DNA of 64,000 bases. It comes from Eledone cirrhosa (lineage: Eukaryota). Shown in pieces: positions 15,001-44,096 of this stretch. Position numbers and translations under genes: made by a program. The notes beneath the pieces are model-generated. The model was given only the letters and a program-made list of their open reading frames with translations, did not search any database and was not told the origin of the DNA. The DNA lies in NCBI GenBank assembly GCA_964016885.1, contig OZ024743.1:337342001-337406000 (forward strand). The letters are read 5' to 3'. How positions within the stretch are numbered: position 1 is the first letter of the stretch; the number at the start of each line of letters is the position of its first letter.

Positions 15001-18000
15001 ACAGTACCACCAATAACAACAGCACCAATAACAACATCACCAATAACAGTACCACCAATAACAACAGTACCACCAATAACAACAGCACCAATAACAACAT
15101 CACCAATAACAGTACCACCAATAACAACAGCACCAATAACAACAGCACCAATAACAACAGCACCAATAACAACAGCACCAATAACAACAGTACCACCAAT
15201 AACAACAGTAACAACAATAACAACAGCACCAATAACAACAGCACCAATAACAGTACCACCAATAACAACAGCACCAATAACAACATCACCAATAACAACA
15301 GTACCACCAATAACAGCACCACCAATAGCAACAACACCAATAACAACATCACCAATAACAACAGTACCACCAATAACAGCACCACCAATAACAACAGCAC
15401 CAATAGCAACAACACCAATAACAACAGCACCAATAACAACAGCACCAATAACAACACCATCAATAACAACAGCACCAATTACAACATCACCAATAACAAC
15501 AGCACCAATAACAACAGTACCACCAATAACAACAGCACCACCAATAACAACAGTACCACCAATAACAACAGCACCAATAACAACAGCACCAATAACAACA
15601 GTACCACCAATAACAACAGCACCACCAATAACAACAGTACCACCAATAACAACAGTACCATCAATAACAACACCACCAACAACAACAGCACCAATAACAA
15701 CAGTACCACCAATAACAACAGCACCAATAACAACAGTACCACCAATAACAACAGCACCAATAACAACAGTACCACCAATAACAACACCATCAATAACAAC
15801 AGCACCAATAACAACAGCACCAATAACAACAGCACCAATAAAAACAGTACCACCAATAACAACAGCACCAATAACAACAGTACCACCAATAACAACACCA
15901 TCAATAACAACAGCACCAATAACAACAGCACCAATAACAACAGCACCAATAACAACAGTACCACCAATAACAACACCATCAATAACAACAGCACCAATAA
16001 CAACAGCACCAATAACAACAGCACCAATAACAACAGTACCACCAATAACAACAGCACCAATAACAACAGTACCACCAATAACAACACCATCAATAACAAC
16101 AGCACCAATAACAACAGCACCAATAACAACAGCACCAATAACAACAGTACCACCAATAACAACAGCACCAATAACAACAGTACCACCAATAACAACAGCA
16201 CCAATAACAACAGTACCACCAATAACAACAGTACCATCAATAACAACACCACCAATAACAACAGCACCAATAACAACAGTACCATCAATAACAACAGCAC
16301 CAATAACAACAGCACCAATAACAACAGTACCACCAATAACAACAGCACCAATAACAACAGCACCACCAATAACAACAGCACCAATAACAACAGTACCACC
16401 AATAACAACAGCACCACCAATAACAACAGCACTAATAACAACAGCACCAATAACAACACTACCACCAATAACAACAGCACCAATAACAACAGCACCACCA
16501 ATAACAACAGCACCAATAACAACAGTACCACCAATAACAACAGCACCACCAATAACAACAGCACTAATAACAACAGCACCAATAACAACAGTACCACCAA
16601 TAACAACAGCACCAATAACAACAGCACCACCAATAACAACAGCACCAATAACAACAGCACCACCAATAACAACAGCACCAATAACAACAGTACCACCAAT
16701 AACAACAGCACCACCAATAACAACAGCACTAATAACAACAGCACCAATAACAACAGTACCATCAATAACAACAGCACCAATAACAACAGAACCAATAACA
16801 ACAGTACCACCAATAACAACAGCACCAATAACAACAGTACCACCAATAACAACAGCACCAATAACAACAGTACCACCAATAACAACAGTACCACCAATAA
16901 CAACAGCACCAATAACAACAGTACCACCAATAACAACAGTACCATCAATAACAACACCACCAATAACAACAGCACCAATAACAACAGTACCATCAATAAC
17001 AACAGCACCAATAACAACAGCACCAATAACAACAGTACCACCAATAACAACAGCACCAATAACAACAGTACCACCAATAACAACACCACCAATAACAACA
17101 GTAACACCAATAACAACAGCACCAATAACAACAGCACCACCAATAACAACAGCACCAATAACAACAGTACCACCAATAACAACAGCACCACCAATAACAA
17201 CAGCACTAATAACAACAGCACCAATAACAACAGTACCATCAATAACAACAGCACCAATAACAACAGTACCACCAATAACAACAGCACCAATAACAACAGC
17301 ACCACCAATAACAACAGCACCAATAACAACAGTACCACCAATAACAACACCATCAATAACAACAGCACCAATAACAACAGCACCAATAACAACAGTACCA
17401 CCAATAACAACAGTACCAATAACAACAGCACCACCAATGACAACACCATCAATAACAACACCACCAATAACAACAGCACCAATAACAACAGTACCAATAA
17501 CAACAGCACCAGCAATAACAACACCATCAATAACAACACCACCAATAACAACAGCACCAATAACAACAGCACCACCAATAACAACAGCACCAATAACAAC
17601 AGTACTACCAATAACAACACCACCAATAACAACAGCACCAATAACAACAGCACCAATAACGAAAGTACCAATAACAACAGCACCAATAACAACAGTACCA
17701 ATAACAACAGCACCACCAATAACAACAGTACCACCAATAACAACAGTACCACCAATAACAACAGCACCAATAACAACAGCACCACCAATAACAACAGTAC
17801 CACCAATAACAACAGTACCACCAATAACAACAGTACCACCAATAACAACAGCACCACCAATAACAACAGCACCAATAACAACAGTACCAATAACAACAGT
17901 ACCAATAACAACAGCACCAATAACAACAGCACCAATAACAACATTACCAATAACAACAGCACCAATAACAACAGTACCAATAACAACAGTACCAATAACA

Positions 18001-20772
18001 ACAGTACCAATAACAACAGCACCAATAACAACAGTACCAATAACAACAGCACCAATAACAACATTACCAATAACAACAGCACCAATAACAACAGTACCAA
18101 TAACAACAGCACCAATAACAACAGTACCAATAACAACAGCACCACCAATAACAACAGCACCAATAACAACAGTACCACCAATAACAACAGCACCAATAAC
18201 AACAGCACCACCAATAACAACACCACCAATGACAACAGCACCAATAACAACAGCACCAATAACAACAGCACCACCAATAACAACAGCACCAATAACAACA
18301 GCACCACCAATAACAACAGCACCAATAACAACAGCACCACCAATAACAACAGCACCAATAACAAGAGTACCACCAATAACAACAGTACCACCAATAACAA
18401 CAGCACCAATAACAACAGCACCACCAATAACAACAGTACCAATAACAACAGCACCACCAATAACAACAGCACCAATAACAACAGCACCACCAATAACAAC
18501 AGCACCAATAACAACAGTACCATCAATAACAACAGCACCAATAACAACAGCACCAATAACAACAGTACCATCAATAACAACTGCACCAATAACAACAGCA
18601 CCAATAACAACAGCACCAATAACAACAGCACCACCAATAACAACAGCACCAATAACAACAGTACCACCAATAACAACAGTACCACCAATAACAACAGCAC
18701 CAATAACAACAGCACCACCAATAACAACAGCACCAATAACAACAGCACCACCAATAACAACAGCACCAATAACAACAGTACCACCAATAACAACAGTACC
18801 ACCAATAACAACAGCACCAATAACAACAGTACCAACAATAACAACAGCACCAATAACAACAGTACCACCAATAACAACAGCACCACCAATAACAACAGCA
18901 CCAATAACAACAGCACCACCAATAACAACAGCACCAATAACAACAGTACCACCAATAACAACAGCACCAATAACAACAGTACCACCAATAACAACAGCAC
19001 CACCAATAACAACAGCACCAATAACAACAGCACCACCAATAACAACAGCACCAATAACAACAGTACCACCAATAACAACAGTACCACCAATAACAACAGC
19101 ACCAATAACAACAGCACCACCAATAACAACAGCACCAATAACAACAGTACCACCAATAACAACAGCACCACCAATAACAACAGCACCAATAACAACAGCA
19201 CCACCAATAACAACAGCACCACCAATAACAACAGCACCAATAACAACAGCACCACCAATAACAACAGCACCACCAATAACAACAGCACCAATAACAACAG
19301 TACCACCAATAACAACAGTACTACCAATAACAACAGCACCACCAATAACAACAGCACCAATAACAACAGCACCACCAATAACAACAGTACCACCAATAAC
19401 AACAGTACCACCAATAAGAACAGTACCACCAATAACAACAGTACCACCAATAACAACAGCACCAATAACGACAGCACCACCAATAACAACAGCACCAATA
19501 ACAACAGTACCACCAATAACAACAGCACCACCAATAACAACAGCACCAATAACAACAGCACCACCAATAACAACAGCACCAATAACAACAGTACCACCAA
19601 TAACAACAGCACCACCAATAACAACAGCACCAATAACAACAGTACCAATAACAACAGCACCACCAATAACAACAGTACCACCAATAACAACAGTACCACC
19701 AATAACAACAGCACCAATAACAACAGCACCACCAATAACAACAGTACCACCAATAACAACAGTACCAATAACAACAGCACCACCAATAACAACAGTACCA
19801 CCAATAACAACAGTACCACCAATAACAACAGCACCAATAACAACAGTACCAATAACAACAGCACCAATAACAACAGCACCAATAACAACAGCACCACCAA
19901 TAACAACAGTACCACCAATAACAACAGTACCAATAACAACAGTACCACCAATAACAACAGTACCAATAACAACAGCACCAATAACAACAGTACCACCAAT
20001 AACAACAGTACCAATAACAACAGCACCAATAACAACAGTACCACCAATAACAACAGCATCAATAACAACACCACCAATAACAACAGCACCAATAACAACA
20101 GTACCAATAACAACAGCACCAATAACAACAGTACCACCAATAACAACAGTACCAATAACAACAGAACCAATAACAACAGTACCACCAATAACAACAGCAC
20201 CACCAATAACAACAGTACCACCAATAACAACAGCACCAATAACAACAGAACCAATAACAACAGTACCACCAATAACAACAGTACCACCAATAACAACAGC
20301 ACCACCAATAACAACAGTACCACCAATAACAACAGTACCAATAACAACAGAACCAATAACAACAGTACCACCAATAACAACAGTACCACCAATAACAACA
20401 GTACCAATAACAACAGAACCAATAACAACAGTACCACCAATAACAACACCATCAATAACAACAGCACCAATAACAACAGTACCAATAACAACAGCACCAA
20501 TAACAACAGTACCAATAACAACAGAACCAATAACAACAGTACCACCAATAACAACAGTACCACCAATAACAACAGCACCACCAATAACAACAGTACCACC
20601 AATAACAACAGTACCAATAACAACAGAACCAATAACAACAGTACCACCAATAACAAGAGCACCAATAACAACAGCACCAATAACAACAGTACCACCAATA
20701 ACAACAGCACCAATAACAACAGCACCAATAACAACAGCACCACCAATAACAACAGTACCAATAACAACAGCA
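1..20772 (+). repeat. Coding-type minisatellite of 15/18-nt units (ATAACAACAGCACCA / ATAACAACAGTACCACCA) with ~5.8-6.6-kb higher-order repeats
   Basis: Direct reading. Rare variants recur at fixed offsets: ITRVPA at ~1543/7402/13837, ITTVTT at ~2929/8773/15208, ITTGP at ~4636/11269. Confidence 0.95.
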
Positions 20773-23199
20773 CCACCAACACCAACAATACGACCAACAC
20801 CACTACCACCAACAACACAAACAACAGCACCACCAACACCAACAATACGACCAACACCTCTACCACCAACAACACCAACAACAGCGCCACCAACACTAAC
20901 AATACGACCAACACCACTACCACCAACAACACCAACAACAGCACCACCAACACCAATAATACGACCAACACCACTACCACCAACAACACAAACAACAGCA
21001 CCACCAACACCAACAATACGACCAACACCTCTACCACCAACAACACCAACAACAGCGCCACCAACACTAACAATACGACCAACACCACTACCACCAACAA
21101 CACCAACAACAGCACCACCAACACCAATAATACGACCAACACCACTACCACCAACAACACAAACAACAGCACCACCAACACCAACAATACGACCAACACC
21201 TCTACCACCAACAACACCAACAACAGCACCACCAACACTAACAATACGACCAACACCACTACCACCAACAACACCAACAACAGCACCACCAACACTAACA
21301 ATACGACCAACACCACTACCACCAACAACACCAACAACAGCACCACCAACAGCAACAATACGACCAACACCACTACCACCAACAACACCAACAACAGCAC
21401 CACCAACACCAACAATACGACCAACACCTCTACCACCAACAACACAAACAACAGCACCACCAACACCAACAAGAAGACCAACACCACTACCACCAACAAC
21501 ACCAACAACAGCACCACCAACACTAACAATACGACCAACACCACTACCACCAACAACACCAACAACAGCACCACCAACACCAACAATACGACCAACACCT
21601 CTACCACCAACAACACAAACAACAGCACCACCAACACCAACAATACGACCAACACCTCTACCATCAACAACACCAACAACAGCACCACCAACACCAACAA
21701 TACGACCAACACCACTACCACCAACAACACAAACAACAGCACCACCAACACCAACAATACGACCAACACCACTACCACCAACAACACCAACAACAGCACC
21801 ACCAACACCAACAATACGACCAACACCTCTACCATCAACAACACCAACAACAGCACCACCAACACCAACAATACGACCAACACCACTACCACCAACAACA
21901 CCAACAACAGCACCACCAACACCAACAATACGACCAACACCTCTACCACCAACAACACCAACAACAGCACCACCAACACCAACAATACGACCAACACCAC
22001 TACCACCAAAACCAACAACAGCACCACCAACACCAACAATACGACCAACACCTCTACCATCAACAACACCAACAACAGCACCACCAACACCAACAATACG
22101 ACCAACACCTCTACCATCAACAACACCAACTACAGCACCACCAACACTAACAATACGACCAACACCTCTACCACCAACAATACCAACAACAGCACCACCA
22201 ACACTAACAATACGACCAACACCTCTACCATCAACAACACCAACAACAGCACCACCAACACCAACAATACGACCAACACCACTACCACCAACAACACCAA
22301 CAACAGCACCACCAACACCAACAATACGACCAACACCACTACCACCAACAACACCAACAACAGCACCACCAACACCAACAATACGACCAACACCTCTACC
22401 ATCAACAACACCAACAACAGCACCACCAACACCAACAATACGACCAACACCACTACCACCAACAACACCAACAACAGCACCACCAACACCAACACCACTA
22501 CCGCCAACAACACCAACAACAGCACTACCAACACCAACAATACGACCAACACCACTACCACCAACAACACCAACAACAGCACCACCAACACCAACAATAC
22601 GACCAACACCTCTACCATCAACAACACCAACAACAGCACCACCAACACTAACAATACGACCAACACCTCTACCACCAACAACACCAACAACAGCACCACC
22701 AACACCAACAATACGACCAACACCACTACCACCAACAACACCAACAACAGCACCACCAACACCAACAATACGACCAACACCACTACCGCCAACAACACCA
22801 ACAACAGCACTACCAACACCAACAATACGACCAACACCACTACCACCAACAACACCAACAACAGCACCACCAACACCAACAATACGACCAACACCTCTAC
22901 CATCAACAACACCAACAACAGCACCACCAACACTAACAATACGACCAACACCTCTACCACCAACAACACCAACAACAGCACCACCAACACCAACAATACG
23001 ACCAACACCACTACCACCAACAACACCAACAACAGCACCACCAACACCAACAATACGACCAACACCACTACCGCCAACAACACCAACAACAGCACTACCA
23101 ACACCAACAATACGACCAACACCACTACCACCAACAATACCAACAACAGCACCACCAACACCACCAAACGACCAACACCACTACCACCAACAACACTAA
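1..23199 (+). CDS. Giant mucin-like Pro/Thr-rich (PTS) repeat ORF, 5'-incomplete (>7700 codons within the window)
   Basis: Frame 1 is open from base 1 (ATA ACA ACA GTA CCA CCA) to TAA 23197-23199. The ORF-track start at 4249 is only an internal ATA>ATG variant. Unit-length changes are multiples of 3 until 23161. The product is [11 protein letters not shown], then [19 protein letters not shown], ending [10 protein letters not shown]. No start, signal peptide or folded domain is visible in the window. Confidence 0.65.
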
Positions 23200-26100
23200 C
23201 AACAGCACCACCAACACCACCAAACAACCAACACCACTACCACCAACAACACCAACAACAGCACCACCAACACCAACAATACGACCAACACCTCTACCCT
23301 CAACAACACCAACAACAGCACCACCAACACCAACAATACGACCAACACCACTACCACCAACAACACCAACAACAGCACCACCAACACCAACAATACGACC
23401 AACACCTCTACCATCAACAACACCAACAACAGCACCACCAACACCAACAATACGACCAACACCACTACCGCCAACAACACCAACAACAGCACTACCAACA
23501 CCAACAATACGACCAACACCACTACCACCAACAACACCAACAACAGCACCACCAACACCAACAATACGACCAACACCTCTACCCTCAACAACACCAACAA
23601 CAGCACCACCAACACCAACAATACGACCAACACCTCTACCCTCAACAACACCAACAACAGCACCACCAACACCAACAATACGACCAACACCACTACCACC
23701 AACAACACCAACAACAGCACCACCAACACCAACAATACGACCAACACCTCTACCCTCAACAACACCAACAACAGCACCACCAACACCAACAATACGACCA
23801 ACACTACTACCACCAACAACACCAACAACAGCACCACCAACACCAACAATACGACCAACACCACTACCACTAACAACAGCACCACCAACACCAACAATAC
23901 GACCAACACCACTACCACCAACAACAACACCAACAGCACCACCAACACCAACAATACGACCAACACCACTACCACCAACAACATCAACAACAGCACCACC
24001 AACACTAACAATACGACCAACACCACTACCACCAACAACACCAGCACCAGCAGCACCTACACTAACAATACGACCAACACCACTACCACCAACAACACCA
24101 ACAACAGCACCACCAACACCAACAATACGACCAACACCTCTACCATCAACAACACCAACAACAGCACCACCAACACCAACAATACGACCAACACCACTAC
24201 CACCAACAACACCAACAACAGCACCACCAACACCAACAATACGACCAACACCTCTACCACCAACAACACCAACAACAGCACCACCAACACCAACAATACG
24301 ACCAACACCACTACCACCAAAACCAACAACAGCACCACCAACACCAACAATACGACCAACACCTCTACCATCAACAACACCAACAACAGCACCACCAACA
24401 CCAACAATACGACCAACACCTCTACCACCAACAACACAAACAACAGCACCACCAACACCAACAATACGACCAACACCTCTACCATCAACAACACCAACAA
24501 CAGCACCACCAACACCAACAATACGACCAACACCACTACCACCAACAACACAAACAACAGCACCACCAACACCAACAATACGACCAACACCACTACCACC
24601 AACAACACCAACAACAGCACCACCAACACCAACAATACGACCAACACCTCTACCATCAACAACACCAACAACAGCACCACCAACACCAACAATACGACCA
24701 ACACCACTACCACCAACAACACCAACAACAGCACCACCAACACCAACAATACGACCAACACCTCTACCACCAACAACACCAACAACAGCACCACCAACAC
24801 CAACAATACGACCAACACCACTACCACCAAAACCAACAACAGCACCACCAACACCAACAATACGACCAACACCTCTACCATCAACAACACCAACAACAGC
24901 ACCACCAACACCAACAATACGACCAACACCTCTACCATCAACAACACCAACTACAGCACCACCAACACTAACAATACGACCAACACCTCTACCACCAACA
25001 ATACCAACAACAGCACCACCAACACTAACAATACGACCAACACCTCTACCATCAACAACACCAACAACAGCACCACCAACACCAACAATACGACCAACAC
25101 CACTACCACCAACAACACCAACAACAGCACCACCAACACCAACAATACGACCAACACCACTACCACCAACAACACCAACAACAGCACCACCAACACCAAC
25201 AATACGACCAACACCTCTACCATCAACAACACCAACAACAGCACCACCAACACCAACAATACGACCAACACCACTACCACCAACAACACCAACAACAGCA
25301 CCACCAACACCAACACCACTACCGCCAACAACACCAACAACAGCACTACCAACACCAACAATACGACCAACACCACTACCACCAACAACACCAACAACAG
25401 CACCACCAACACCAACAATACGACCAACACCTCTACCATCAACAACACCAACAACAGCACCACCAACACTAACAATACGACCAACACCTCTACCACCAAC
25501 AACACCAACAACAGCACCACCAACACCAACAATACGACCAACACCACTACCACCAACAACACCAACAACAGCACCACCAACACCAACAATACGACCAACA
25601 CCACTACCGCCAACAACACCAACAACAGCACTACCAACACCAACAATACGACCAACACCACTACCACCAACAACACCAACAACAGCACCACCAACACCAA
25701 CAATACGACCAACACCTCTACCATCAACAACACCAACAACAGCACCACCAACACTAACAATACGACCAACACCTCTACCACCAACAACACCAACAACAGC
25801 ACCACCAACACCAACAATACGACCAACACCACTACCACCAACAACACCAACAACAGCACCACCAACACCAACAATACGACCAACACCACTACCGCCAACA
25901 ACACCAACAACAGCACTACCAACACCAACAATACGACCAACACCACTACCACCAACAATACCAACAACAGCACCACCAACACCACCAAACGACCAACACC
26001 ACTACCACCAACAACACTAACAACAGCACCACCAACACCACCAAACAACCAACACCACTACCACCAACAACACCAACAACAGCACCACCAACACCAACAA

Positions 26101-29100
26101 TACGACCAACACCTCTACCCTCAACAACACCAACAACAGCACCACCAACACCAACAATACGACCAACACCACTACCACCAACAACACCAACAACAGCACC
26201 ACCAACACCAACAATACGACCAACACCTCTACCATCAACAACACCAACAACAGCACCACCAACACCAACAATACGACCAACACCACTACCGCCAACAACA
26301 CCAACAACAGCACTACCAACACCAACAATACGACCAACACCACTACCACCAACAACACCAACAACAGCACCACCAACACCAACAATACGACCAACACCTC
26401 TACCCTCAACAACACCAACAACAGCACCACCAACACCAACAATACGACCAACACCTCTACCCTCAACAACACCAACAACAGCACCACCAACACCAACAAT
26501 ACGACCAACACCACTACCACCAACAACACCAACAACAGCACCACCAACACCAACAATACGACCAACACCTCTACCCTCAACAACACCAACAACAGCACCA
26601 CCAACACCAACAATACGACCAACACTACTACCACCAACAACACCAACAACAGCACCACCAACACCAACAATACGACCAACACCACTACCACTAACAACAG
26701 CACCACCAACACCAACAATACGACCAACACCACTACCACCAACAACAACACCAACAGCACCACCAACACCAACAATACGACCAACACCACTACCACCAAC
26801 AACATCAACAACAGCACCACCAACACTAACAATACGACCAACACCACTACCACCAACAACACCAGCACCAGCAGCACCTACACTAACAATACGACCAACA
26901 CCACTACCACCAACAACACCAACAACAGCACCACCAACACCAACAATACGACCAACACCTCTACCATCAACAACACCAACAACAGCACCACCAACACCAA
27001 CAATACGACCAACACCACTACCACCAACAACACCAACAACAGCACCACCAACACCAACAATACGACCAACACCTCTACCACCAACAACACCAACAACAGC
27101 ACCACCAACACCAACAATACGACCAACACCACTACCACCAAAACCAACAACAGCACCACCAACACCAACAATACGACCAACACCTCTACCATCAACAACA
27201 CCAACAACAGCACCACCAACACCAACAATACGACCAACACCTCTACCACCAACAACACCAACAACAGCACCACCAACACTAACAATACGACCAACACCAC
27301 TACCACCAACAACACCAACAACAGCACCACCAACACTAACAATACGACCAACACCACTACCACCAACAACACCAACAACAGCACCACCAACAGCAACAAT
27401 ACGACCAACACCACTACCACCAACAACACCAACAACAGCACCACCAACACCAACAATACGACCAACACCTCTACCACCAACAACACAAACAACAGCACCA
27501 CCAACACCAACAAGAAGACCAACACCACTACCACCAACAACACCAACAACAGCACCACCAACACTAACAATACGACCAACACCACTACCACCAACAACAC
27601 CAACAACAGCACCACCAACACCAACAATACGACCAACACCTCTACCACCAACAACACAAACAACAGCACCACCAACACCAACAATACGACCAACACCTCT
27701 ACCATCAACAACACCAACAACAGCACCACCAACACCAACAATACGACCAACACCACTACCACCAACAACACAAACAACAGCACCACCAACACCAACAATA
27801 CGACCAACACCACTACGACCAACAACACCAACAACAGCACCACCAACACCAACAATACGACCAACACCTCTACCATCAACAACACCAACAACAGCACCAC
27901 CAACACCAACAATACGACCAACACCACTACCACCAACAACACCAACAACAGCACCACCAACACCAACAATACGACCAACACCTCTACCACCAACAACACC
28001 AACAACAGCACCACCAACACCAACAATACGACCAACACCACTACCACCAAAACCAACAACAGCACCACCAACACCAACAATACGACCAACACCTCTACCA
28101 TCAACAACACCAACAACAGCACCACCAACACCAACAATACGACCAACACCTCTACCATCAACAACACCAACTACAGCACCACCAACACTAACAATACGAC
28201 CAACACCTCTACCACCAACAATACCAACAACAGCACCACCAACACTAACAATACGACCAACACCTCTACCATCAACAACACCAACAACAGCACCACCAAC
28301 ACCAACAATACGACCAACACCACTACCACCAACAACACCAACAACAGCACCACCAACACCAACAATACGACCAACACCACTACCACCAACAACACCAACA
28401 ACAGCACCACCAACACCAACAATACGACCAACACCTCTACCATCAACAACACCAACAACAGCACCACCAACACCAACAATACGACCAACACCACTACCAC
28501 CAACAACACCAACAACAGCACCACCAACACCAACACCACTACCGCCAACAACACCAACAACAGCACTACCAACACCAACAATACGACCAACACCACTACC
28601 ACCAACAACACCAACAACAGCACCACCAACACCAACAATACGACCAACACCTCTACCATCAACAACACCAACAACAGCACCACCAACACTAACAATACGA
28701 CCAACACCTCTACCACCAACAACACCAACAACAGCACCACCAACACCAACAATACGACCAACACCACTACCACCAACAACACCAACAACAGCACCACCAA
28801 CACCAACAATACGACCAACACCACTACCGCCAACAACACCAACAACAGCACTACCAACACCAACAATACGACCAACACCACTACCACCAACAACACCAAC
28901 AACAGCACCACCAACACCAACAATACGACCAACACCTCTACCATCAACAACACCAACAACAGCACCACCAACACTAACAATACGACCAACACCTCTACCA
29001 CCAACAACACCAACAACAGCACCACCAACACCAACAATACGACCAACACCACTACCACCAACAACACCAACAACAGCACCACCAACACCAACAATACGAC

Positions 29101-32100
29101 CAACACCACTACCGCCAACAACACCAACAACAGCACTACCAACACCAACAATACGACCAACACCACTACCACCAACAATACCAACAACAGCACCACCAAC
29201 ACCACCAAACGACCAACACCACTACCACCAACAACACTAACAACAGCACCACCAACACCACCAAACAACCAACACCACTACCACCAACAACACCAACAAC
29301 AGCACCACCAACACCAACAATACGACCAACACCTCTACCCTCAACAACACCAACAACAGCACCACCAACACCAACAATACGACCAACACCACTACCACCA
29401 ACAACACCAACAACAGCACCACCAACACCAACAATACGACCAACACCTCTACCATCAACAACACCAACAACAGCACCACCAACACCAACAATACGACCAA
29501 CACCACTACCGCCAACAACACCAACAACAGCACTACCAACACCAACAATACGACCAACACCACTACCACCAACAACACCAACAACAGCACCACCAACACC
29601 AACAATACGACCAACACCTCTACCCTCAACAACACCAACAACAGCACCACCAACACCAACAATACGACCAACACCTCTACCCTCAACAACACCAACAACA
29701 GCACCACCAACACCAACAATACGACCAACACCACTACCACCAACAACACCAACAACAGCACCACCAACACCAACAATACGACCAACACCTCTACCCTCAA
29801 CAACACCAACAACAGCACCACCAACACCAACAATACGACCAACACCACTACCACCAACAACACCAACAACAGCACCACCAACACCAACAATACGACCAAC
29901 ACCACTACCACTAACAACAGCACCACCAACACCAACAATACGACCAACACCACTACCACCAACAACAACACCAACAGCACCACCAACACCAACAATACGA
30001 CCAACACCACTACCACCAACAACACCAGCACCAGCAGCACCAACACTAACAATACGACCAACACCACTACCACCAACAACACCAACAACAGCACCACCAA
30101 CACCAACAATACGACCAACACCTCTACCATCAACAACACCAACAACAGCACCACCAACACCAACAATACGACCAACACCACTACCACCAACAACACCAAC
30201 AACAGCACCACCAACACCAACAATACGACCAACACCACTACCACCAAAACCAACAACAGCACCACCAACACCAACAATACGACCAACACCTCTACCATCC
30301 ACAACACCAACAACAGCACCACCAACACCAACAATACGACCAACACCTCTACCATCAACAACACCAACAACAGCACCACCAACACTAACAATACGACCAA
30401 CACCTCTACCACCAACAATACCAACAACAGCACCACCAACACTAACAATACGACCAACACCTCTACCATCAACAACACCAACAACAGCACCACCAACACC
30501 AACAATACGACCAACACCACTACCACCAACAACACCAACAACAGCACCACCAACACCAACAATACGACCAACACCACTACCACCAACAACACCAACAACA
30601 GCACCACCAACACCAACAATACGACCAACACCTCTACCATCAACAACACCAACAACAGCACCACCAACACCAACAATACGACCAACACCACTACCACCAA
30701 CAACACCAACAACAGCACCACTAACACCAACACCACTACCGCCAACAACACCAACAACAGCACTACCAACACCAACAATACGACCAACACCACTACCACC
30801 AACAACACCAACAACAGCACCACCAACACCAACAATACGACCAACACCACTACCATCAACAACACCAACAACAGCACCACCAACACTAACAATACGACCA
30901 ACACCTCTACCACCAACAACACCAACAACAGCACCACCAACACCAACAATACGACCAACACCACTACCACCAACAACACCAACAACAGCACCACCAACAC
31001 CAACAATACGACCAACACCACTACCGCCAACAACACCAACAACAGCACTACCAACACCAACAATACGACCAACACCACTACCACCAACAACACCAACAAC
31101 AGCACCACCAACACCAACAATACGACCAACACCAACAACAGCACCACCAACACTAACAATACGACCAACACCTCTACCACCAACAACACCAACAACAGCA
31201 CCACCAACACCAACAATACGACCAACACCACTACCACCAACAACACCAACAACAGCACCACCAACACCAACAATACGACCAACACCACTACCGCCAACAA
31301 CACCAACAACAGCACTACCAACACCAACAATACGACCAACACCACTACCACCAACAACACCAACAACAGCACCACCAACACCACCAAACGACCAACACCA
31401 CTACCACCAACAACACTAACAACAGCACCACCAACACCACCAAACAACCAACACCACTACCACCAACAACACCAACAACAGCACCACCAACACCAACAAT
31501 ACGACCAACACCTCTACCCTCAACAACACCAACAACAGCACCACCAACACCAACAATACGACCAACACCACTACCGCCAACAACACCAACAACAGCACTA
31601 CCAACACCAACAATACGACCAACACCACTACCACCAACAACACCAACAACAGCACCACCAACACCAACAATACGACCAACACCTCTACCCTCAACAACAC
31701 CAACAACAGCACCACCAACACCAACAATACGACCAACACCTCTACCCTCAACAACACCAACAACAGCACCACCAACACCAACAATACGACCAACACCACT
31801 ACCACCAACAACACCAACAATACGACCAACACCTCTACCCTCAACAACACCAACAACAGCACCACCAACACCAACAATACGACCAACACCACTACCACCA
31901 ACAACACCAACAACAGCACCACCAACACCAACAATACGACCAACACCTCTACCCTCAACAACACCAACAACAGCACCACCAACACCAACAATACGACCAA
32001 CACCTCTACCCTCAACAACACCAACAACAGCACCACCAACACCAACAATACGACCAACGGCACTACCACCAACAACAACACCAACAGCACCACCAACACC

Positions 32101-35100
32101 AACAATACGACCAACACCACTACCACCAACAACATCAACAACAGCACCACCAACACCAACAATACGACCAACACCTCTACCCTCAACAACACCAACAACA
32201 GCACCACCAACACCAACAATACGACCAACACCTCTACCCTCAACAACACCAACAACAGCACCACCAACACCAACAATACGACCAACACCACTACCACCAA
32301 CAACACCAACAACAGCACCACCAACACCAACAATACGACCAACACCTCTACCCTCAACAACACCAACAACAGCACCACCAACACCAACAATACGACCAAC
32401 ACCACTACCACCAACAACACCAACAACAGCACCACCAACACCAACAATACGACCAACACCACTACCACTAACAACAGCACCACCAACACCAACAATACGA
32501 CCAACACCACTACCACCAACAACAACACCAACAGCACCACCAACACCAACAATACGACCAACACCACTACCACCAACAACATCAACAACAGCACCACCAA
32601 CACTAACAATACGACCAACACCACTACCACCAACAACACCAGCACCAGCAGCACCAACACTAACAATACGACCAACACCACTACCACCAACAACACCAAC
32701 AACAGCACCACCAACACCAACAATACGACCAACACCTCTACCATCAACAACACCAACAACAGCACCACCAACACCAACAATACGACCAACACCACTACCA
32801 CCAACAACACCAACAACAGCACCACCAACACCAACAATACGACCAACACCTCTACCACCAACAACACCAACAACAGCACCACCAACACCAACAATACGAC
32901 CAACACCACTACCACCAAAACCAACAACAGCACCACCAACACCAACAATACGACCAACACCTCTACCATCAACAACACCAACAACAGCACCACCAACACC
33001 AACAATACGACCAACACCTCTACCATCAACAACACCAACAACAGCACCACCAACACTAACAATACGACCAACACCTCTACCACCAACAATACCAACAACA
33101 GCACCACCAACACTAACAATACGACCAACACCTCTACCATCAACAACACCAACAACAGCACCACCAACACCAACAATACGACCAACACCACTACCACCAA
33201 CAACACCAACAACAGCACCACCAACACCAACAATACGACCAACACCACTACCACCAACAACACCAACAACAGCACCACCAACACCAACAATACGACCAAC
33301 ACCTCTACCATCAACAACACCAACAACAGCACCACCAACACCAACAATACGACCAACACCACTACCACCAACAACACCAACAACAGCACCACTAACACCA
33401 ACACCACTACCGCCAACAACACCAACAACAGCACTACCAACACCAACAATACGACCAACACCACTACCACCAACAACACCAACAACAGCACCACCAACAC
33501 CAACAATACGACCAACACCACTACCATCAACAACACCAACAACAGCACCACCAACACTAACAATACGACCAACACCTCTACCACCAACAACACCAACAAC
33601 AGCACCACCAACACCAACAATACGACCAACACCACTACCACCAACAACACCAACAACAGCACCACCAACACCAACAATACGACCAACACCACTACCGCCA
33701 ACAACACCAACAACAGCACTACCAACACCAACAATACGACCAACACCACTACCACCAACAACACCAACAACAGCACCACCAACACCAACAATACGACCAA
33801 CACCAACAACAGCACCACCAACACTAACAATACGACCAACACCTCTACCACCAACAACACCAACAACAGCACCACCAACACCAACAATACGACCAACACC
33901 ACTACCACCAACAACACCAACAACAGCACCACCAACACCAACAATACGACCAACACCACTACCGCCAACAACACCAACAACAGCACTACCAACACCAACA
34001 ATACGACCAACACCACTACCACCAACAACACCAACAACAGCACCACCAACACCACCAAACGACCAACACCACTACCACCAACAACACTAACAACAGCACC
34101 ACCAACACCACCAAACAACCAACACCACTACCACCAACAACACCAACAACAGCACCACCAACACCAACAATACGACCAACACCTCTACCCTCAACAACAC
34201 CAACAACAGCACCACCAACACCAACAATACGACCAACACCACTACCACCAACAACACCAACAACAGCACCACCAACACCAACAATACGACCAACACCTCT
34301 ACCATCAACAACACCAACAACAGCACCACCAACACCAACAATACGACCAACACCACTACCGCCAACAACACCAACAACAGCACTACCAACACCAACAATA
34401 CGACCAACACCACTACCACCAACAACACCAACAACAGCACCACCAACACCAACAATACGACCAACACCTCTACCCTCAACAACACCAACAACAGCACCAC
34501 CAACACCAACAATACGACCAACACCTCTACCCTCAACAACACCAACAACAGCACCACCAACACCAACAATACGACCAACACCACTACCACCAACAACACC
34601 AACAATACGACCAACACCTCTACCCTCAACAACACCAACAACAGCACCACCAACACCAACAATACGACCAACACCACTACCACCAACAACACCAACAACA
34701 GCACCACCAACACCAACAATACGACCAACACCTCTACCCTCAACAACACCAACAACAGCACCACCAACACCAACAATACGACCAACACCTCTACCCTCAA
34801 CAACACCAACAACAGCACCACCAACACCAACAATACGACCAACACCTCTACCATCAACAACACCAACAACAGCACCACCAACACCAACAATACGACCAAC
34901 ACCACTACCACCAACAACACCAACAACAGCACCACCAACACCAACAATACGACCAACACCTCTACCCTCAACAACACCAACAACAGCACCACCAACACCA
35001 ACAATACGACCAACACCACTACCACCAACAACACCAACAACAGCACCACCAACACCAACAATACGACTAACACCACTACCACCAACAACAGCACCACCAA

Positions 35101-36110
35101 CACCAACAATACGACCAACGGCACTACCACCAACAACAACACCAACAGCACCACCAACACCAACAATACGACCAACACCACTACCACCAACAACATCAAC
35201 AACAGCACCACCAACACCAACAATACGACTAACACCACTACCACCAACAACAGCACCACCAACACCAACAATACGACCAACACCACTACCACCACCAACA
35301 ACATCAACAACAGCACCACCAACACCAACAATACGACTAACACCACTACCACCAACAACAGCACCACCAACACTAACAATACGACCAACACCACTACCAC
35401 CAACAACACCAACAACAGCACCACCAACACCAACAATACGACCAACACCTCTACCCTCAACAACACCAACAACAGCACCACCAACACCAACAATACGACC
35501 AACACCACTACCACCAACAACACCAACAACAGCACCACCAACACCAACAATACGACCAACACCTCTACCCTCAACAACACCAACAACAGCACCACCAACA
35601 CCAACAATACGACCAACACCACTACCACCAACAACACCAACAACAGCACCACCAACACCAACAATACGACTAACACCACTACCACCAACAACAGCACCAC
35701 CAACACCAACAATACGACCAACACCACTACCACCAACAACAACACCAACAGCACCACCAACACCAACAATACGACCAACACCACTACCACCAACAACAGC
35801 ACCACCAACACCAACAATACGACCAACACCACTACCACCAACAACAACACCAACAGCACCACCAACACCAACAATACGACCAACACCACTACCACCAACA
35901 ACAGCACCACCAACACCAACAATACGACCAACACCACTACCACCAACAACAACACCAACAGCACCACCAACACCAACAATACGACCAACACCACTACCAC
36001 CAACAACATCAACAACAGCACCACCAACACTAACAATACGACCAACACCACTACCACCAACAACACCAGCACCAGCAGCACCAACACCAACAATACGACC
36101 AACACCACTA
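20773..36110 (+). repeat. 57-nt minisatellite (19 aa [19 protein letters not shown]) with 2.2-3.2-kb higher-order blocks
   Basis: Unit CCAACACCAACAATACGACCAACACCACTACCACCAACAACACCAACAACAGCACCA; ACGACC recurs every 57 nt (e.g. 23281, 23338). Blocks are delimited by frameshift cassettes spaced 2821, 3220, 2179 and 2671 nt. Confidence 0.95.
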
Positions 36111-36521
36111 CCACCAAAACTATCAACAACACCAGCACCAGCAGCACCAGCAGCACCACCAGCACCACCAGCACCATCAACACCACCAACACCAACAATA
36201 CAACCACCACCACTACCACCAAAACTATCAACAACACCAGCACCAGCAGCACCAGCATCACCAGCACCACCAGCACCATCAACACAACCAACACCAACAA
36301 TACAACCACCACCACTACCGCCAAAACTATCAACAACACCAGCACTACCAGCACTACCAGCACCACCAGCACCATCAACACAACCAACACCAACAATACA
36401 ACCACCACCACTACCACCAAAACTATCAACAACACCAGCACTACCAGCACCACCCCCAGCACCAGCAGCAGCCCCATCAACGCCAATCAGCCTCTTTGTT
36501 TCCAAAGTTGTATTCAGCTAA
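23224..36521 (+). other. Five further open Pro/Thr-frame segments downstream of the first stop (~23224-26020, 26045-29240, 29265-31419, 31444-34090, 34115-36521); status unresolved (3'UTR, pseudogenised tail or recoded)
   Basis: Each segment is stop-free in its own repeat frame. The last degrades into PAPA-rich repeats and ends ...PAAAPSTPISLFVSKVVFS-TAA (36519-36521). There is no GT dinucleotide in the 57-nt array, so canonical splicing cannot remove the cassettes. Confidence 0.6.
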
Positions 36522-36721
36522 GAATGTTGCAGCTAACGTGATATTAGCTGGTAGAAAGAACGATTCAGTTAAAGCCTCTTCGACCTTAAACTATTTTATA
36601 TTTGGTTAAATAGAGAAATATTAACAAATAATGACTACAACAACTAATTAAAAAAAAAAAAAGAAGCAACAACAAAACCAAACGGTGATAGTAGCAACAA
36701 AAATGTTTAAATAGAATGAAC

Positions 36722-37095
36722 CTTGTGCAATGACCGAAAGAATACAATCGCAAATACAAGCGGCCGAAATGGGGTTCCTCCGAAGGGTCTATGGAGTAAC
36801 GTTACTCGATAGAGTCCGTAGCTCGGAGATCAGAGAATCACCTCAGGTAGAGTCGATGCTTCTCCGAATTGATAGATCACAGCTCCGATACTATGAAAAA
36901 ATCGCCGGACAGATATTACGGCAAAACCAACCGGCAGGAGACCCAGGGGTAGACCATGAGCAAGATGCTAGGCTGGTCTCGCTTGGGGATCCAGTTAGAA
37001 ACGGTTGCTTCTGACAGAACCGACTGGAAGGAGTGTTTGAAGTCTCTGCCACCTCGACCCTCTCAGGTGTAAGTGGGCAAAGAAGAAGAAGAAGA
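36722..37095 (+). mobile_element. 3' fragment of a non-LTR retrotransposon (RTE-like)
   Basis: Translation IQAAEMGFLRRVYGVTLLDRVRSSEIRE matches the post-RT C-terminal motif of RTE-type LINEs; ends in an (AGA)n tail at ~37081-37095. Confidence 0.65.
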
Positions 37096-37212
37096 TATAG
37101 AGATATTTAGAAAAACATGTCTCCTCGTCAGAAATAACTAAATTAGATTAATGTTTGTATATCTGTTTTTATTACTCTTTTATCCTCTCCCACTTTCGCT
37201 CTCTCCCCGCCC

Positions 37213-37399
37213 TCTCTCTCATATATATATAATGTGTGTGTGTGTGCGTGTGTATATATATATATATGTGTGTGTGTGTGTATGTGGACATATACATGTA
37301 TATATATGTGTTTATATATATGTATGTATCTATCTATGTCTATCTATTTATCTTTTTATCTCTCTCCCTCTCTCTCTCTCACTCTCTCTCTCTCTCTCA

Positions 37400-37467
<68 letters not shown>

Positions 37468-37485
37468 TATATATATATACATATA
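37213..37485. repeat. Compound microsatellite (CT)n/(TA)n/(GT)n
   Basis: Direct reading. Confidence 0.95.
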
Positions 37486-37906
37486 AACATGCACACATAT
37501 TTACAAATTATGGTTGCACAGAAATGATAACAACAACAGCAGCAACAACAACAACAAATGTATAATATTTCTTTTTTATTTTCTACGCACCATCAGAAGA
37601 GTAAATCTGTTCTGACCAGGCAGTACTGTAATTCTCAGTACATAAATACCATGTTTTCTTTCACAATTTATGAGGTACAGGTTTGAAATGGACAGTAAAA
37701 TAGCAAGTTTTTCTATTAGAGCATTAATAAAAACAAGATTCGCATAAATGTTTGGTAGAACATTCCTTCCTATACATATGTTCATATCTGTAGAGTCAAA
37801 CGTGTAATTATTTGATGCAGAAATGACGTCATACATATAGTTTTGAATAAATTTCTTTTGCAGTTCCACATATGGCATGAAAGGGAAAATATTACTGGAG
37901 CAATAA

Positions 37907-38085
37907 TTCTTTCTAACATTGGCATAAGGCAGCAATTTGGGGGAAGAAAATTATCGATTATATAGACACCAGTATTTAACTGGTACTTTATTATATCGAC
38001 CCTGGAAGGACGAAAAGCAAAGTTGACCATGGCAGGATTTGAACTCAGGCCGTCGAAAGTGTTAACTAAATGCTGCAAAATAACT
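37907..38085 (-). mobile_element. tRNA-derived SINE (Octopus-type family), partial
   Basis: Shares the core CTGGTACTTTATT..ATCGACCC..AAGGA.GAAAGGCAAAGTT.ACC..GGC.GGATTTGAACTCAG with several other copies in the window. Confidence 0.8.
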
Positions 38086-38116
38086 GAACACATACCTAAT
38101 ATATTAGGGTAGCTGA

Positions 38117-38342
38117 AAGGTGATGGATTGCCAGAATAATTAGAGTGTCAGATGAAATGCTATTGCGGTATTTGTTATGACTCTTTACGTTCTGAGTTCA
38201 AATCCCACCGAGTTTAGCTTTATCTTTCGTCCCTGCGGGGTCGATAGAATAAAACACAAGTAAGTCACTGGCGTCAATTTAATCGACTTTACCTTTCCTT
38301 TCAAATTGCTGGCCTTGTGCCAAAAGTAGACATAATTATTAT
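38117..38342 (+). mobile_element. tRNA-derived SINE (same family)
   Basis: B-box-like GAGTTCAAATCC, followed by the family core and the GGCCTTGTGCCAAAAGTAGA tail. Confidence 0.8.
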
Positions 38343-38516
38343 AAGACATATGCCATAAGGTCAAGGTTAAACCATTTTGACACGAAAACGGTTTAAGCAT
38401 GACCATAGGGCGTATATGCCTTATAATAACTAAACTCTACTTTTCTCGAAGTATGAAATACTAAGTTTAATAATTGTTTTATTAGTCTTAAGTAGAATAC
38501 ACACACACACACACAC

Positions 38517-38563
<47 letters not shown>

Positions 38564-38772
38564 GAAAGGATAACAAGGACGATTGATTACTCCTTCATTG
38601 CATTTATTGGTAGGTGACGCGTGTTTCGCCACTGATCAGCTCAAGGTTCGATCTGTATCGATCCTACCCGACTCAATAATCGGCGGCTCGACAGAACCTT
38701 TAAAATGCGAAACGCGCGCCACCTACCAATAAATGCAATGAAGGAGTAATCAATCGTCCTTGTTATCCTTTC
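38564..38772. repeat. Inverted repeat, ~66-bp arms (38564-38629 / 38707-38772)
   Basis: GAAAGGATAACAAGGACGATTGATTACTCCTTCATTGCATTTATTGGTAGGTG... is mirrored almost perfectly; the left side abuts (TA)n. Confidence 0.9.
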
Positions 38773-38860
38773 AATATATTACACACTGAGGTGAACCTAA
38801 ACATCGAGTAGTCTCCCAGGGGAACCTGCAGTAACTCCAAGTTACACCCCCTGGATATAT

Positions 38861-39033
38861 ATATAGTTACAATATACTTATAAACCAACATTAAAAGTTA
38901 AAGACATTTAATCACTGATCTATTGTTTTTTCCTAGACAGCAAATTACTGTGGTATATTCCTATGGGAAGAAACAATTGTCAGTGATTGTCTTGAAGTTT
39001 TAATGTTGGTTTATATACATATTGTAACTATAT
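38861..39033. repeat. Imperfect inverted repeat, ~70-bp arms
   Basis: ATATAGTTACAATAT..TATAAACCAACATTAAAA is mirrored by TTTTAATGTTGGTTTATA..ATATTGTAACTATAT. Confidence 0.85.
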
Positions 39034-39266
39034 ACTATGCTTGATCGTAGTGGTGAATTAAATATACCTAGTAAATGAGTAACATTTACTCTCATTAATA
39101 TTACTGTATATATATATATATATATACTAATATAAAACAGGACGAAGTGTTAGGTCCTCATTACGTTTGTTGAGGTGTGACGCGCGTTTCGCGATTGATC
39201 AGTTCAAGGTTCGATCTGTATCAATCTGGCTCGTCTCTGGAATCAAAAGCTCATCGGACGTTACAA

Positions 39267-39301
<35 letters not shown>

Positions 39302-39329
39302 TTCTCTCTCTCTCTCTATCTCTCTCTCT

Positions 39330-39402
<73 letters not shown>

Positions 39403-39439
39403 AATGAAATGACAGGAGGCTGGACTTGAAAGGTTTATT

Positions 39440-39497
39440 ATACTATGATCATTTCAATGACCGGGTTCCGTATGAATCCGGTGATATCATCAGGTAT
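39440..39497 (-). ncRNA. Type I hammerhead ribozyme motif (Penelope-like-element type)
   Basis: Minus strand reads ATAC-CTGATGA-tatcACCGG..CCGGTcatt-GAAA-TGATCA-TA-GTAT-AATAAA: complete core, stem I ATAC/GTAT, palindromic stem III, AUA cleavage triplet, then a poly(A) signal. Confidence 0.7.
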
Positions 39498-39703
39498 TCG
39501 AAATATAATAAGTGAATGTAATAGATAAAATCCATATATATATAAAGAAAGTGCTCAAGCGCAGAAATGCTATAAAGATAGCATATAAAATAGGGTGAAG
39601 ACCCTTAAAAGACGGCAAAGGAATTTGCCAACGACCGCAGACCGCAATATATATGTAGTGGTAGAGATGTGTTTACGTTTGTGTCTGAGTTCACGTTTAT
39701 GTA

Positions 39704-39871
39704 CAGTATTTCCAGGCGTCGGAGACGCTACTTTTCCCCCAAAATAAGTCTCAAAAATCTACCATGCGTCCTGGAAGCCGAAGGTTGGTGATTATTTTTT
39801 TTCAAATTTTTGGTTGTCAAAAGTAGGGTGCGTCCTCGAGGACGAAGCTTCTTCGGCGCCGGGAAATACGG
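39704..39871. mobile_element. MITE, Tc1/mariner superfamily (pogo/Tc2-like termini)
   Basis: Imperfect TIRs CAGTATTTCCAGGCGTCGGAGA / TCTTCGGCGCCGGGAAATACGG; TA on the left flank. Confidence 0.6.
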
Positions 39872-40046
39872 CAATTTAGCGATTAGACAACAACAAAAAA
39901 CGACAACAACAATAGAATAAATGTCAGAATTGGAAGAAAGTACTGATTGGTGGTTAATATGATCGACTAAATCAAAGCCGGTGCTCCAGCATGGCCGCAG
40001 TCTAATGGCCGAACCCAGCAGAGATAGATAGATAAATACAATGAAA

Positions 40047-40240
40047 GAATAATTGTTTCTACTTTTGGCACACGGCCAGCAATTACCCAGTAAATTACGG
40101 GTACTTTATTTTATCGACCCCGTAAGGATGAAAGGCAAAGTTAACCTTGGCGGGATTTGAACTCAGTCCGTAAAGGGACGTAACTCTGTGCTGCAAAGCA
40201 TGGCGTCCTACCTTCTACCGATACTGCCAATCCACCACCC
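40047..40240 (-). mobile_element. tRNA-derived SINE (same family)
   Basis: Near-identical to the copy at 55905-56091. Confidence 0.85.
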
Positions 40241-40457
40241 CAAAGAAAGACTAATAAAATAATAGAAGTTCTACGATATAGTTTTATGACTATAACAGAG
40301 AGTGTGGTGTTTATACAACATTGATATACAATGGTCCAGACACTTGAGCGCTTTTCTCTTAGAATTGGTAAATACATTGCAATGTGTTTATAGGAACACT
40401 TAAATAGCTCTGGTGTTAACACTAGAGAATTACCTTTATCTATGTCTGGCAAAATTG

Positions 40458-40488
<31 letters not shown>

Positions 40489-40845
40489 TGTTTTGTAAGG
40501 TTTTGTTTTGTGCTGAGCAGCTTTTTTTTCCTCTATCACACTATCTTCTACATAACCCCCCTTCTTCTCTGTTATATATATGTGTGTGTGTGTGTGTGTG
40601 TGGGGGGGGGGGGTTGTGTCTGTCTGTGTGTGTACTTGTGTGCGTGCATGTGATCGTCTTAACGTAGTCCAACTGATGCTCACACACACACCTACACACA
40701 CACACGCATATATATATATATATATTTATTTTTATATGGGGATAACCGACCTGGAATGTGCAAACCACTCTCTCTCTTTCTCTCTCTCTATATATATTTA
40801 TATATATAAGAGTCAAGGAAAAATAACTGATGACTAATAAAGTGA

Positions 40846-40873
<28 letters not shown>

Positions 40874-40876
<3 letters not shown>

Positions 40877-40977
40877 ACAAATTTAATATAGAAATGACTT
40901 CTACATGACTACAAATATTTCATTTGAATGAAACAGTTCTAGTCATGTAGAAGCCATTTCTATATTAAATTTGTTGT
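40874..40977. repeat. Inverted repeat, ~50-bp arms with almost no spacer
   Basis: ACAACAAATTTAATATAGAAATGACTTCTACATGACTA is mirrored by TAGTCATGTAGAAGCCATTTCTATATTAAATTTGTTGT; abuts (TA)n. Confidence 0.9.
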
Positions 40978-41053
40978 ATACACTCTAGTAAGGCATTGAC
41001 CACCTTACTTACTGTGGTTACCCTCGATTGCACTCGGGACTCACAGACACACA

Positions 41054-41140
<87 letters not shown>

Positions 41141-41537
41141 GCATGTGTATGTATGTGTGGGAGTGTATTAGATCACTGTAGTTTGAATGTAAAATTAGGA
41201 AATAGAGTTAACTGTTGCCAAAATTATTTTAGAAAATCCTGTGCAATGCAAGCTGGAAATAGAGGAGTAAAAATAGAAGCCAAGTAAAGCAAAACACCAG
41301 TTTACACTTTTATCTTTCGTTGTTAAGAGATACCATTTCGTTACAATCCTCTATTTTTCTCTTGATAAAGGTATTTTAAGATCGAAATATCGAAATATAT
41401 GTTAAAAGGGAAAACTGTTGTTTTATTTTACTTCTTTATTTCTAGTTTACATTGTGAGTGGCTTTCTATAAGAATTTTAGTAGTTTTGAATACGCGTGCC
41501 CACACAAACATGCACACACAAACATGCACACACATAT

Positions 41538-41618
<81 letters not shown>

Positions 41619-41638
41619 CACACATATATATATATATA

Positions 41639-41738
41639 CAGGTTTGTCCCAAAAAATACATACATACTTCAACACAATTCTATTAAATATTGCCTGCACA
41701 GGTAATCAAAGTGTATATATTTCTTTTGGGACACCCTG
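41639..41738. mobile_element. 100-bp MITE, Tc1/mariner-type
   Basis: TIRs CAGGTTTGTCCCAAAA / TTTTGGGACACCCTG, inserted in (TA)n with TA on both sides. Confidence 0.75.
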
Positions 41739-41839
41739 TATATATATATATATATGCAAATATATATATATATAATATTATGGATACTATTTATGGTTAT
41801 GTATATATTAAAACTTTTTATAGTTATGTATATTTTAAA

Positions 41840-43045: not shown

Positions 43046-43341
43046 GATATATATATATAAATATATATATATAGGTATATTATATTATATTATATTTTAT
43101 TACATTGTATTATATATAATTCCTGCTATATATAACCACCTTTGTTTAGCTCTAGGTTTTTTTTTGCTTTGGACTATATTTGTAATATGGTTCTTAATGT
43201 TATATACATCCTTAGTCATTTTTATTATATATTTTTATTATTTTTATTATATATTTTTGCAATACTTTAGTCTATGTACACTCCATATTCTTCGGAGCTT
43301 CCGGCTTGTATCTGCCGATATTACTTCTTGTTGTTTTAATT

Positions 43342-43379
43342 GCCCTGATGAGTCCTTAATAGGACGAAACATTGTCGGC
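43342..43379 (+). ncRNA. Minimal type I hammerhead ribozyme
   Basis: GCC-CTGATGA-GTCCT taat AGGAC-GAAA-C att G-TC-GGC: perfect core, 5-bp stem II, stem I GCC/GGC, GUC cleavage triplet; AATAAA at 43381-43386. Confidence 0.85.
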
Positions 43380-43426
43380 TAATAAAGACTTTTGATGTAT
43401 TGAAGGCTTCTTTGTTTTACTCTCTT

Positions 43427-43442
43427 AAATATATATATATAT

Positions 43443-43523
<81 letters not shown>

Positions 43524-43540
43524 CATACATACATACACAC
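43427..43540. repeat. (TA)n/(TACA)n microsatellite
   Basis: Direct reading. Confidence 0.95.
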
Positions 43541-43944: not shown

Positions 43945-44096
43945 CAGTCATGGGCAAAATGCGGGCCGCTTGCCACAAAGGCCAGTTTTGCTTTCTGAAT
44001 GGCACGCCTAATTTCAATATTGCCTTAAATGCGACTTGCCTTCTGATGAGCCACATCCTATGCGGCCCACTGCTCGAAAGAATTTGCCCATGCCTG
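43945..44096. mobile_element. hAT-type MITE with 8-bp target-site duplication
   Basis: TIRs CAGTCATGGGCAAA / TTTGCCCATGCCTG; exact TSD CTATAAGT at 43937-43944 and 44097-44104. Confidence 0.85.

Follow-up and report, generated by a model that had tools for sequence, protein, structure and literature searches.

The first 36 kb of the 64,000-nucleotide (nt) stretch of Eledone cirrhosa DNA analysed here (contig OZ024743.1, positions 337,342,001 to 337,406,000 of the forward strand; hereafter the window) belong to a tandem array of ca. 40 kb in which five identical cassettes interrupt an open frame rich in Pro and Thr. The feature is real but is an ordinary intronic repeat: the array is probably a non-coding compound minisatellite with higher-order repeats, located in the predicted first intron of a protease gene, and its cassettes would correspond to one old deletion multiplied by repeat turnover. 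An original prediction had taken the array as a giant mucin coding exon and had offered three options for the cassettes, namely stop-dependent +1 frameshifting, a true C-terminus whose block was amplified by unequal exchange, and a truncating allele or assembly artefact; the premise common to all three is probably wrong. Analyses took in 200 kb upstream and 30 kb downstream of the window, in an assembly of 3.0 Gb. Negative coordinates continue the window numbering upstream, the corresponding position in L005 being the value plus 10000.

Origin of the five cassettes

The array is composed of two blocks, the second of which carries the cassettes as located by unit splitting and by counting their pattern in the genome:

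1..20762, continuing upstream, + strand: block of 15/18-nt units with its own higher-order repeats of ca. 5.8-6.6 kb
20763..36450, + strand: block of 57-nt units with higher-order repeats of 2.2-3.2 kb and a degenerate 3' edge
23161..23225, + strand: cassette 1, two one-base deletions, TAA at 23197
25982..26046, + strand: cassette 2, TAA at 26018
29202..29266, + strand: cassette 3, TAA at 29238
31381..31445, + strand: cassette 4, TAA at 31417
34052..34116, + strand: cassette 5, TAA at 34088

The 65-nt cassettes are identical letter for letter in all five copies, and each spans two consecutive 56-nt units that both lack one base, 57 nt being the modal unit of the surrounding block (233 of the 276 units). 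At each cassette the Pro/Thr frame passes into a His/Gln frame which meets a TAA 36 nt later. This is what the original prediction had described, and all of its coordinates and letters are confirmed. Genome-wide, a 30-nt cassette pattern was encountered five times, every time at this locus. The unit bearing the TAA was likewise found five times and nowhere but in the cassettes, in agreement with the earlier claim of a CCA to CTA variant limited to them; such confinement of the C>T change at this unit position is expected if the change arose in the founder copy. The occurrence of a stop is itself unremarkable given the frequency of TAA in the His/Gln frame, with 49 cases in ca. 263 units outside the cassettes and 46 of 246 normal units encountering one within 19 codons (a background of 19% per unit). 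Phase tracking detected ten register changes within the window, all in cassettes, and none elsewhere between positions 1 and 36500. The claim that these are the sole frame-breaking indels in 36.5 kb thus holds inside the window but not upstream of it, where two further one-base deletions are found near -3426 (L005:6574) and -3307 (L005:6693).

Every cassette occurs at the equivalent place of a 2.2-3.2 kb higher-order repeat, with spacings of 2821, 3220, 2179 and 2671 nt. The stretch of identity around them reaches 2,887 nt between copies 1 and 2, 2,028 nt between either of these and copy 3, and 1,275 nt between copies 4 and 5; in the remaining six pairs it is 217-576 nt. In a stretch of 1,171 nt with the cassette at its centre, no difference separates copies 1, 2 and 3, while copies 4 and 5 are identical to copy 1 at 1,117 and 1,130 of 1,132 aligned bases, respectively. 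Unit splitting further indicates that the run of unit types before and after the cassette is alike at all five, that one frame-neutral unit type recurs five times, 998 or 980 nt before the cassette, and that other ordinary unit variants recur three or four times at fixed cassette offsets. Because the copies share multi-kb blocks and unit variants at fixed offsets, they likely trace back to one event and are not independent. Within a cassette, both deletions correspond to the same missing base and are accompanied by the same A>C change, so that the pair is most simply one deletion duplicated at the unit level.

A scenario in four steps would account for this situation. One 57-nt unit would first have lost a base and gained the A>C change; slippage at the unit level would then have duplicated the shortened unit, resulting in two adjacent 56-nt units. 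The second of these would have acquired a G>A change together with the C>T change that creates the TAA, and unequal exchange would finally have copied a 2-3 kb block holding the pair until five copies were present. The part of the original prediction that involved a block amplified by unequal exchange is therefore retained on account of the shared blocks and fixed offsets, but not the mucin coding exon that it presupposed.

More generally, exact duplicates of 2.0-2.9 kb in the 57-nt block and periods of 5.8-6.6 kb in the 15/18-nt block make blocks more alike than units. The array starts at ca. L005:6140, some 3.9 kb upstream of the window, and is confined to one locus (454 of the 455 genome matches were recounted locally). 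Its 5' edge displays a TAG, a TAA and a TGA in the Pro/Thr register as well as an older register change near -3700 (L005:6300). Directly after its 3' end, a high-copy retroelement-like fragment matching thousands of contigs occupies window positions 36700-37110.

The protease gene predicted to host the array

The array is flanked by the exons of a six-exon tryptase-2-like S1 protease gene, which is intact as judged from the following gene model:

L005:2749-2830, 7.2 kb upstream of the window, + strand: predicted exon 1, 27 codons, signal-peptide-like, with a phase-1 consensus donor GTGAGT
1..52996, + strand: part of predicted intron 1 lying in the window (60,166 nt in total) of the tryptase-like protease
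52997..53168, + strand: exon 2, with a phase-1 acceptor, the activation site and the catalytic His
56659..56798, + strand: exon 3
58580..58711, + strand: exon 4, with the catalytic Asp
60296..60438, + strand: exon 5
from 66217 in window numbering, beyond the window (L025), + strand: exon 6, with the catalytic Ser

Exons 2 to 6 are 72-89% identical to the Octopus bimaculoides protein and display GT-AG ends, consistent phases and the three catalytic motifs. Trypsin exons were flagged by Pfam at 53.0 and 58.6 kb, and for the 57-amino-acid (aa) exon the sole match at E<=1e-8 among 21 candidates was the 268-aa tryptase-2 of Octopus sinensis, with 75% identity. The cluster to which this protein belongs also includes proteins of the same length from O. 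bimaculoides and O. vulgaris, and none of these three Octopus relatives contains a Pro/Thr block. Such matches would place the genome among octopods.

The first 25 residues of the relatives were left unmatched by tblastn. Candidates for the missing exon (ATG, 15-40 codons, phase-1 GT, within 253 kb before exon 2) were therefore scored against the N-terminus of the relatives, and the best of 2408 reached a score of 41, the runner-up having 18. This predicted exon 1 provides the one base that exon 2 requires and restores a Val found at the equivalent position of the relatives. Since it lies upstream of the array and exon 2 starts at 52997, the 40 kb array is predicted to be inside the 60,166-nt first intron and would be spliced out untranslated, splicing being deduced from homology and genomic DNA rather than from complementary DNA. 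A Pro/Thr linker made by the array and fused to exon 2 was considered and rejected, because the relatives are 268 aa long and the Pro/Thr frame stops at 36519.

Elsewhere in the assembly, 26 other trypsin-like matches were found, several of which cluster on C22 and C28. Frames of non-LTR (long terminal repeat) retroelements with RVT_1 and zf-RVT domains occur in and around the protease introns (46105-47769, + strand; 61375-62724, - strand; L007:3535-7041, - strand), the one in L007 being open for 1,169 aa. Diverged short duplicates were seen by eye in intron 1 (42130-42260 and 52560-52760; 42000-42050 and 42990-43050).

Coding potential of the array and alternative explanations

Between -3305 and 23199 no stop interrupts the Pro/Thr frame, which comprises 8,819 codons from -3299 to 23159, nearly all of them for T, P, I, A, V, L or S; the Asn/Thr frame is likewise open for more than 9,000 codons. 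Such an open frame is not evidence of coding: long frames are produced by a three-base-periodic A/C-rich sequence in which mutations can hardly yield a stop and slippage proceeds by multiples of three. Indeed, only 0.3 and 0.0 stops are expected in the Pro/Thr and Asn/Thr frames, respectively, among the 52 distinct substitution types collected from the two array blocks. The same types give a weak test of selection, with low power, in which 14 of 52 were synonymous in the Pro/Thr frame versus 13.0 expected (P=0.41) and in which none of the six frames displayed a synonymous excess. Coding in the Asn/Thr frame was rejected on this ground, as was coding on the minus strand (Gly/Val or Leu/Val frames), where the cassettes break the frames too.

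Periodicity likewise leads one to expect few frame-breaking indels: in a neighbouring 24.6 kb satellite of four-base motifs, used as a control, the length of the unit is a multiple of 4 in 442 cases out of 448. This satellite, located ca. 83.5-108.1 kb upstream of the window (L013-L015), is composed of 52/56-nt units and contains a 200-N assembly gap. Its 51-nt unit (four copies) resembles an amplified one-base deletion but was not counted, as it corresponds to a homopolymer change near the gap. Five short tracts of similar A/C-rich composition were found in the flanks, one of them ca. 200 nt before the array, with stop-free frames of 68-270 codons; they are plausible seeds of the array. In the window, a 630-nt TCAC-type repeat (48815-49442) runs over open frames of ca. 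220 codons and is probably another false open reading frame (ORF) made by a repeat.

Translation would further require an entry into the Pro/Thr frame, and the plausible ones are closed in the assembly by the two one-base deletions and the three stops upstream of the window. Every interior AG among the 1715 present in the array and its edges has at most 5 T in the preceding 20 nt, unlike the T-rich acceptors of the protease itself; four edge sites have 8-10. Phase-1 entry at the T-rich sites of the 5' edge yields 25 and 9 aa just inside the edge and 161 aa at -3899. ATG codons in the Pro/Thr frame occur only deep in the repeat, the first at -1595, and are not associated with a signal peptide. 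The signal exon found upstream belongs to the protease, and, as assembled, any frame that it would open through an edge acceptor soon meets a stop. As the original prediction had stated with respect to splicing, a sequence scan revealed no GT between 20780 and 36498.

A Pfam scan of 300 of the 332 flank ORFs of at least 55 aa (low-complexity ORFs being skipped) detected no vWD, Cys-knot, SEA or membrane domain, although short exons would escape it; its matches were restricted to retroelement domains, a C2H2 fragment and trypsin. The C2H2 zinc-finger fragment, below the Pfam cut-off, is found in two ORFs with identical length and position (58042-58212, + strand; L011:4155-4325, - strand) and probably belongs to a dispersed repeat. 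An AT-rich open frame of 264 codons, of ordinary protein-like composition, occurs ca. 158.7-159.5 kb upstream of the window (L020). Protein searches with the 3' 240 aa of the array (targets of 132-420 aa) and with 105 aa of its 5' edge (targets of 185-2000 aa) returned no relative, a weak result for low-complexity queries. Location in a predicted protease intron and the lack of a credible entry thus argue against the giant Pro/Thr mucin exon that the original prediction assumed.

Several points weigh against the array being a non-coding intronic repeat. That exon 1 is joined to exon 2 over the array is a prediction from DNA. A run of 26.5 kb free of frame breaks is long and its translation is mucin-like. 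The selection test is of low power, and constraint on real mucin repeats is often weak. From exon 1, a junction with the acceptor-like site at -3899 would read on in frame for 161 codons, and one with the site at -3844 for 25. Finally, none of the contigs from runs X1, X2 and X3 bridges the two upstream deletions exactly.

In the main rival explanation, the array serves, or once served, as an alternative terminal exon, to which the signal exon of the protease is spliced through a 5'-edge acceptor so as to encode a secreted Pro/Thr mucin. In one variant the two upstream deletions have since disrupted this exon; in the other, which takes the deletions for errors or for a private allele, the exon extends to the TAA at 23197 and cassettes 2 to 5 fall in the 3' untranslated region, so that the second and third of the earlier options are recovered with a start supplied. 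The site at -3899, preceded by 14 pyrimidines in 20 positions, does lead into the repeat through 161 aa of open phase-1 frame, the Pro/Thr frame is then open from -3305 to 23199, and the two deletions are not matched in independent contigs. The phase match is, however, not an independent one, as the repeat is built such that all of its CAG are phase 1. Both deletions, as in the cassette, are most simply explained if a triplet lost its middle base, rather than as homopolymer slips. In addition, the three edge stops lie in the Pro/Thr register and are confirmed by contigs, and neither a synonymous excess nor a protein relative of either end (the latter being a weak point for low-complexity queries of restricted length) was obtained. 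We therefore consider this explanation rather unlikely, and a mucin currently translated without recoding and ending at 23199 quite improbable.

An assembly artefact, affecting the cassette or its copy number, is highly improbable. Assembly is difficult for a 40 kb array that contains exact duplicates of several kb, an assembly gap occurs in the neighbouring satellite, and the cassettes were seen in the assembly, not at the read level. The deletion nevertheless lies outside homopolymers, the cassette is found in five blocks with differing flanks in an array present at one locus, and both array ends match run contigs exactly (36412-36758 and L005:5975-6442). The latter segment shows 0 differences to contigs of X1, X2 and X3, which also confirms the three edge stops; these runs come from one sample and may be the source of the assembly itself. 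One longer contig across L005:6575 differs by 2 letters and 4 gaps and may derive from another locus, and runs X4 and X5 (organism B) and X9 (restriction-site-associated DNA sequencing) gave only repeat-derived matches on the stretches compared. Among the runs listed for 36300-37100 none was of RNA, which speaks neither for nor against transcription. Random sequencing error is an unlikely source of the cassettes, since the deletion is accompanied by linked substitutions (A>C, G>A and C>T) in ten units, and this part of the earlier artefact option is set aside; copy number could still be mis-assembled.

Least probable of all, and extremely improbable to us, is the programmed +1 frameshifting at CAC-UAA put forward in the original prediction, in which the Pro/Thr frame is restored at each cassette and a ladder of six mucin lengths is produced; the protease signal exon would have to be spliced into an exonised array, giving a giant secreted mucin, and slips would have to take place with neither structure nor re-pairing. 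Skipping one base at the cassette TAA does regain the Pro/Thr frame, as had been claimed, the TAA-bearing unit is restricted to the cassettes, and CAC-TAA-C stands at the shift point in all five, with a stop in the A site followed by a C, a context termed highly conserved after an ORF1 UGA in a passage of PMC5009743. Recovery of the frame by one skipped base after two one-base deletions is, however, a matter of arithmetic, and a stop within 19 His/Gln codons has the 19% background given above. CAC slipping to ACU would pair at 0 of 3 positions, and positions 23150-23300 have a minimum free energy of 0 kcal/mol (z 0.27), hence no 3' structure. Passages of PMC5009743 indicate that most frameshifting involves re-pairing in the P site, that high-level frameshifting usually needs stimulators and that low-efficiency cases without stimulators have been noted; certain yeast sites are described as shifting without re-pairing in part of PMC12661321. 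Given the stimulator-free cases, the features of the site do not by themselves decide against slippage. More weight is carried by the absence of a credible in-frame entry into the translated array that frameshifting requires, as judged from the DNA, and by the single origin of the five copies; the predicted intronic location is a further argument against frameshifting.

Comparison with known systems

Considered as an intronic minisatellite, the array provides two cautions. Three-base-periodic A/C-rich satellites of octopus can yield mucin-like open frames of ca. 9,000 codons, and block duplication can make one neutral deletion resemble a repeated signal. In addition, the likely exon 1 of the protease is 60 kb away from exon 2 and could be missed by gene callers or replaced by a false mucin. 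Were the array translated and recoded, it would represent a +1 site of a novel type and a novel means by which mucin length is set, which nothing here favours. The literature consulted on octopus intronic satellites held nothing specific, from which no claim of absence from print is made.

The host gene resembles the octopus tryptase-2-like S1 peptidases (XP_029644037.1, XP_014790913.1 and CAI9731730.1), with which it shares the catalytic His, Asp and Ser motifs, while its predicted signal exon is more diverged; the relatives were compared as proteins.

Euplotes makes altered use of stop codons, which is not known from octopus. The cassettes have in common with the +1 shifty stops of antizyme and Euplotes a stop followed by a C at which a +1 move continues an open frame (PMC1874602 and PMC5009743, in the passages concerned). 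According to the same passages, antizyme messenger RNAs, molluscan ones included, carry 3' pseudoknots and strongly conserved sites (PMC1874602), and in Euplotes a poor decoding of UAA and +1 re-pairing are believed to act together (PMC5009743). The cassette differs from these systems in having no known shifty codon, re-pairing, 3' pseudoknot or stem, and is known from DNA alone.

Frameshifts in the coding variable number tandem repeats (VNTRs) of MUC1 and CEL offer a parallel in that a one-base indel in a unit opens an alternative repeat frame until a stop is reached; the repeats of MUC1 and CEL are proven coding exons and their indels disease alleles, as reported in parts of PMC12458345 and PMC8692231, whereas here the indel was amplified tenfold in a predicted intron. 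By its letters, the array resembles such a frameshifted coding VNTR.

The array is most similar to intronic minisatellite or satellite arrays, or VNTRs: units in the 10-100 nt range (15, 18 and 57 nt) are repeated head to tail in a long array that homology places between predicted exons of one gene. They are organised in multi-kb blocks with variants at fixed offsets, at one locus, with decayed edges and with length changes in multiples of the underlying period. Its higher-order hierarchy is in the style of alpha-satellite. What sets it apart from the usual intronic VNTRs is its three-base-periodic A/C-rich build, which leaves two plus-strand frames open over 26 kb and mimics a mucin.

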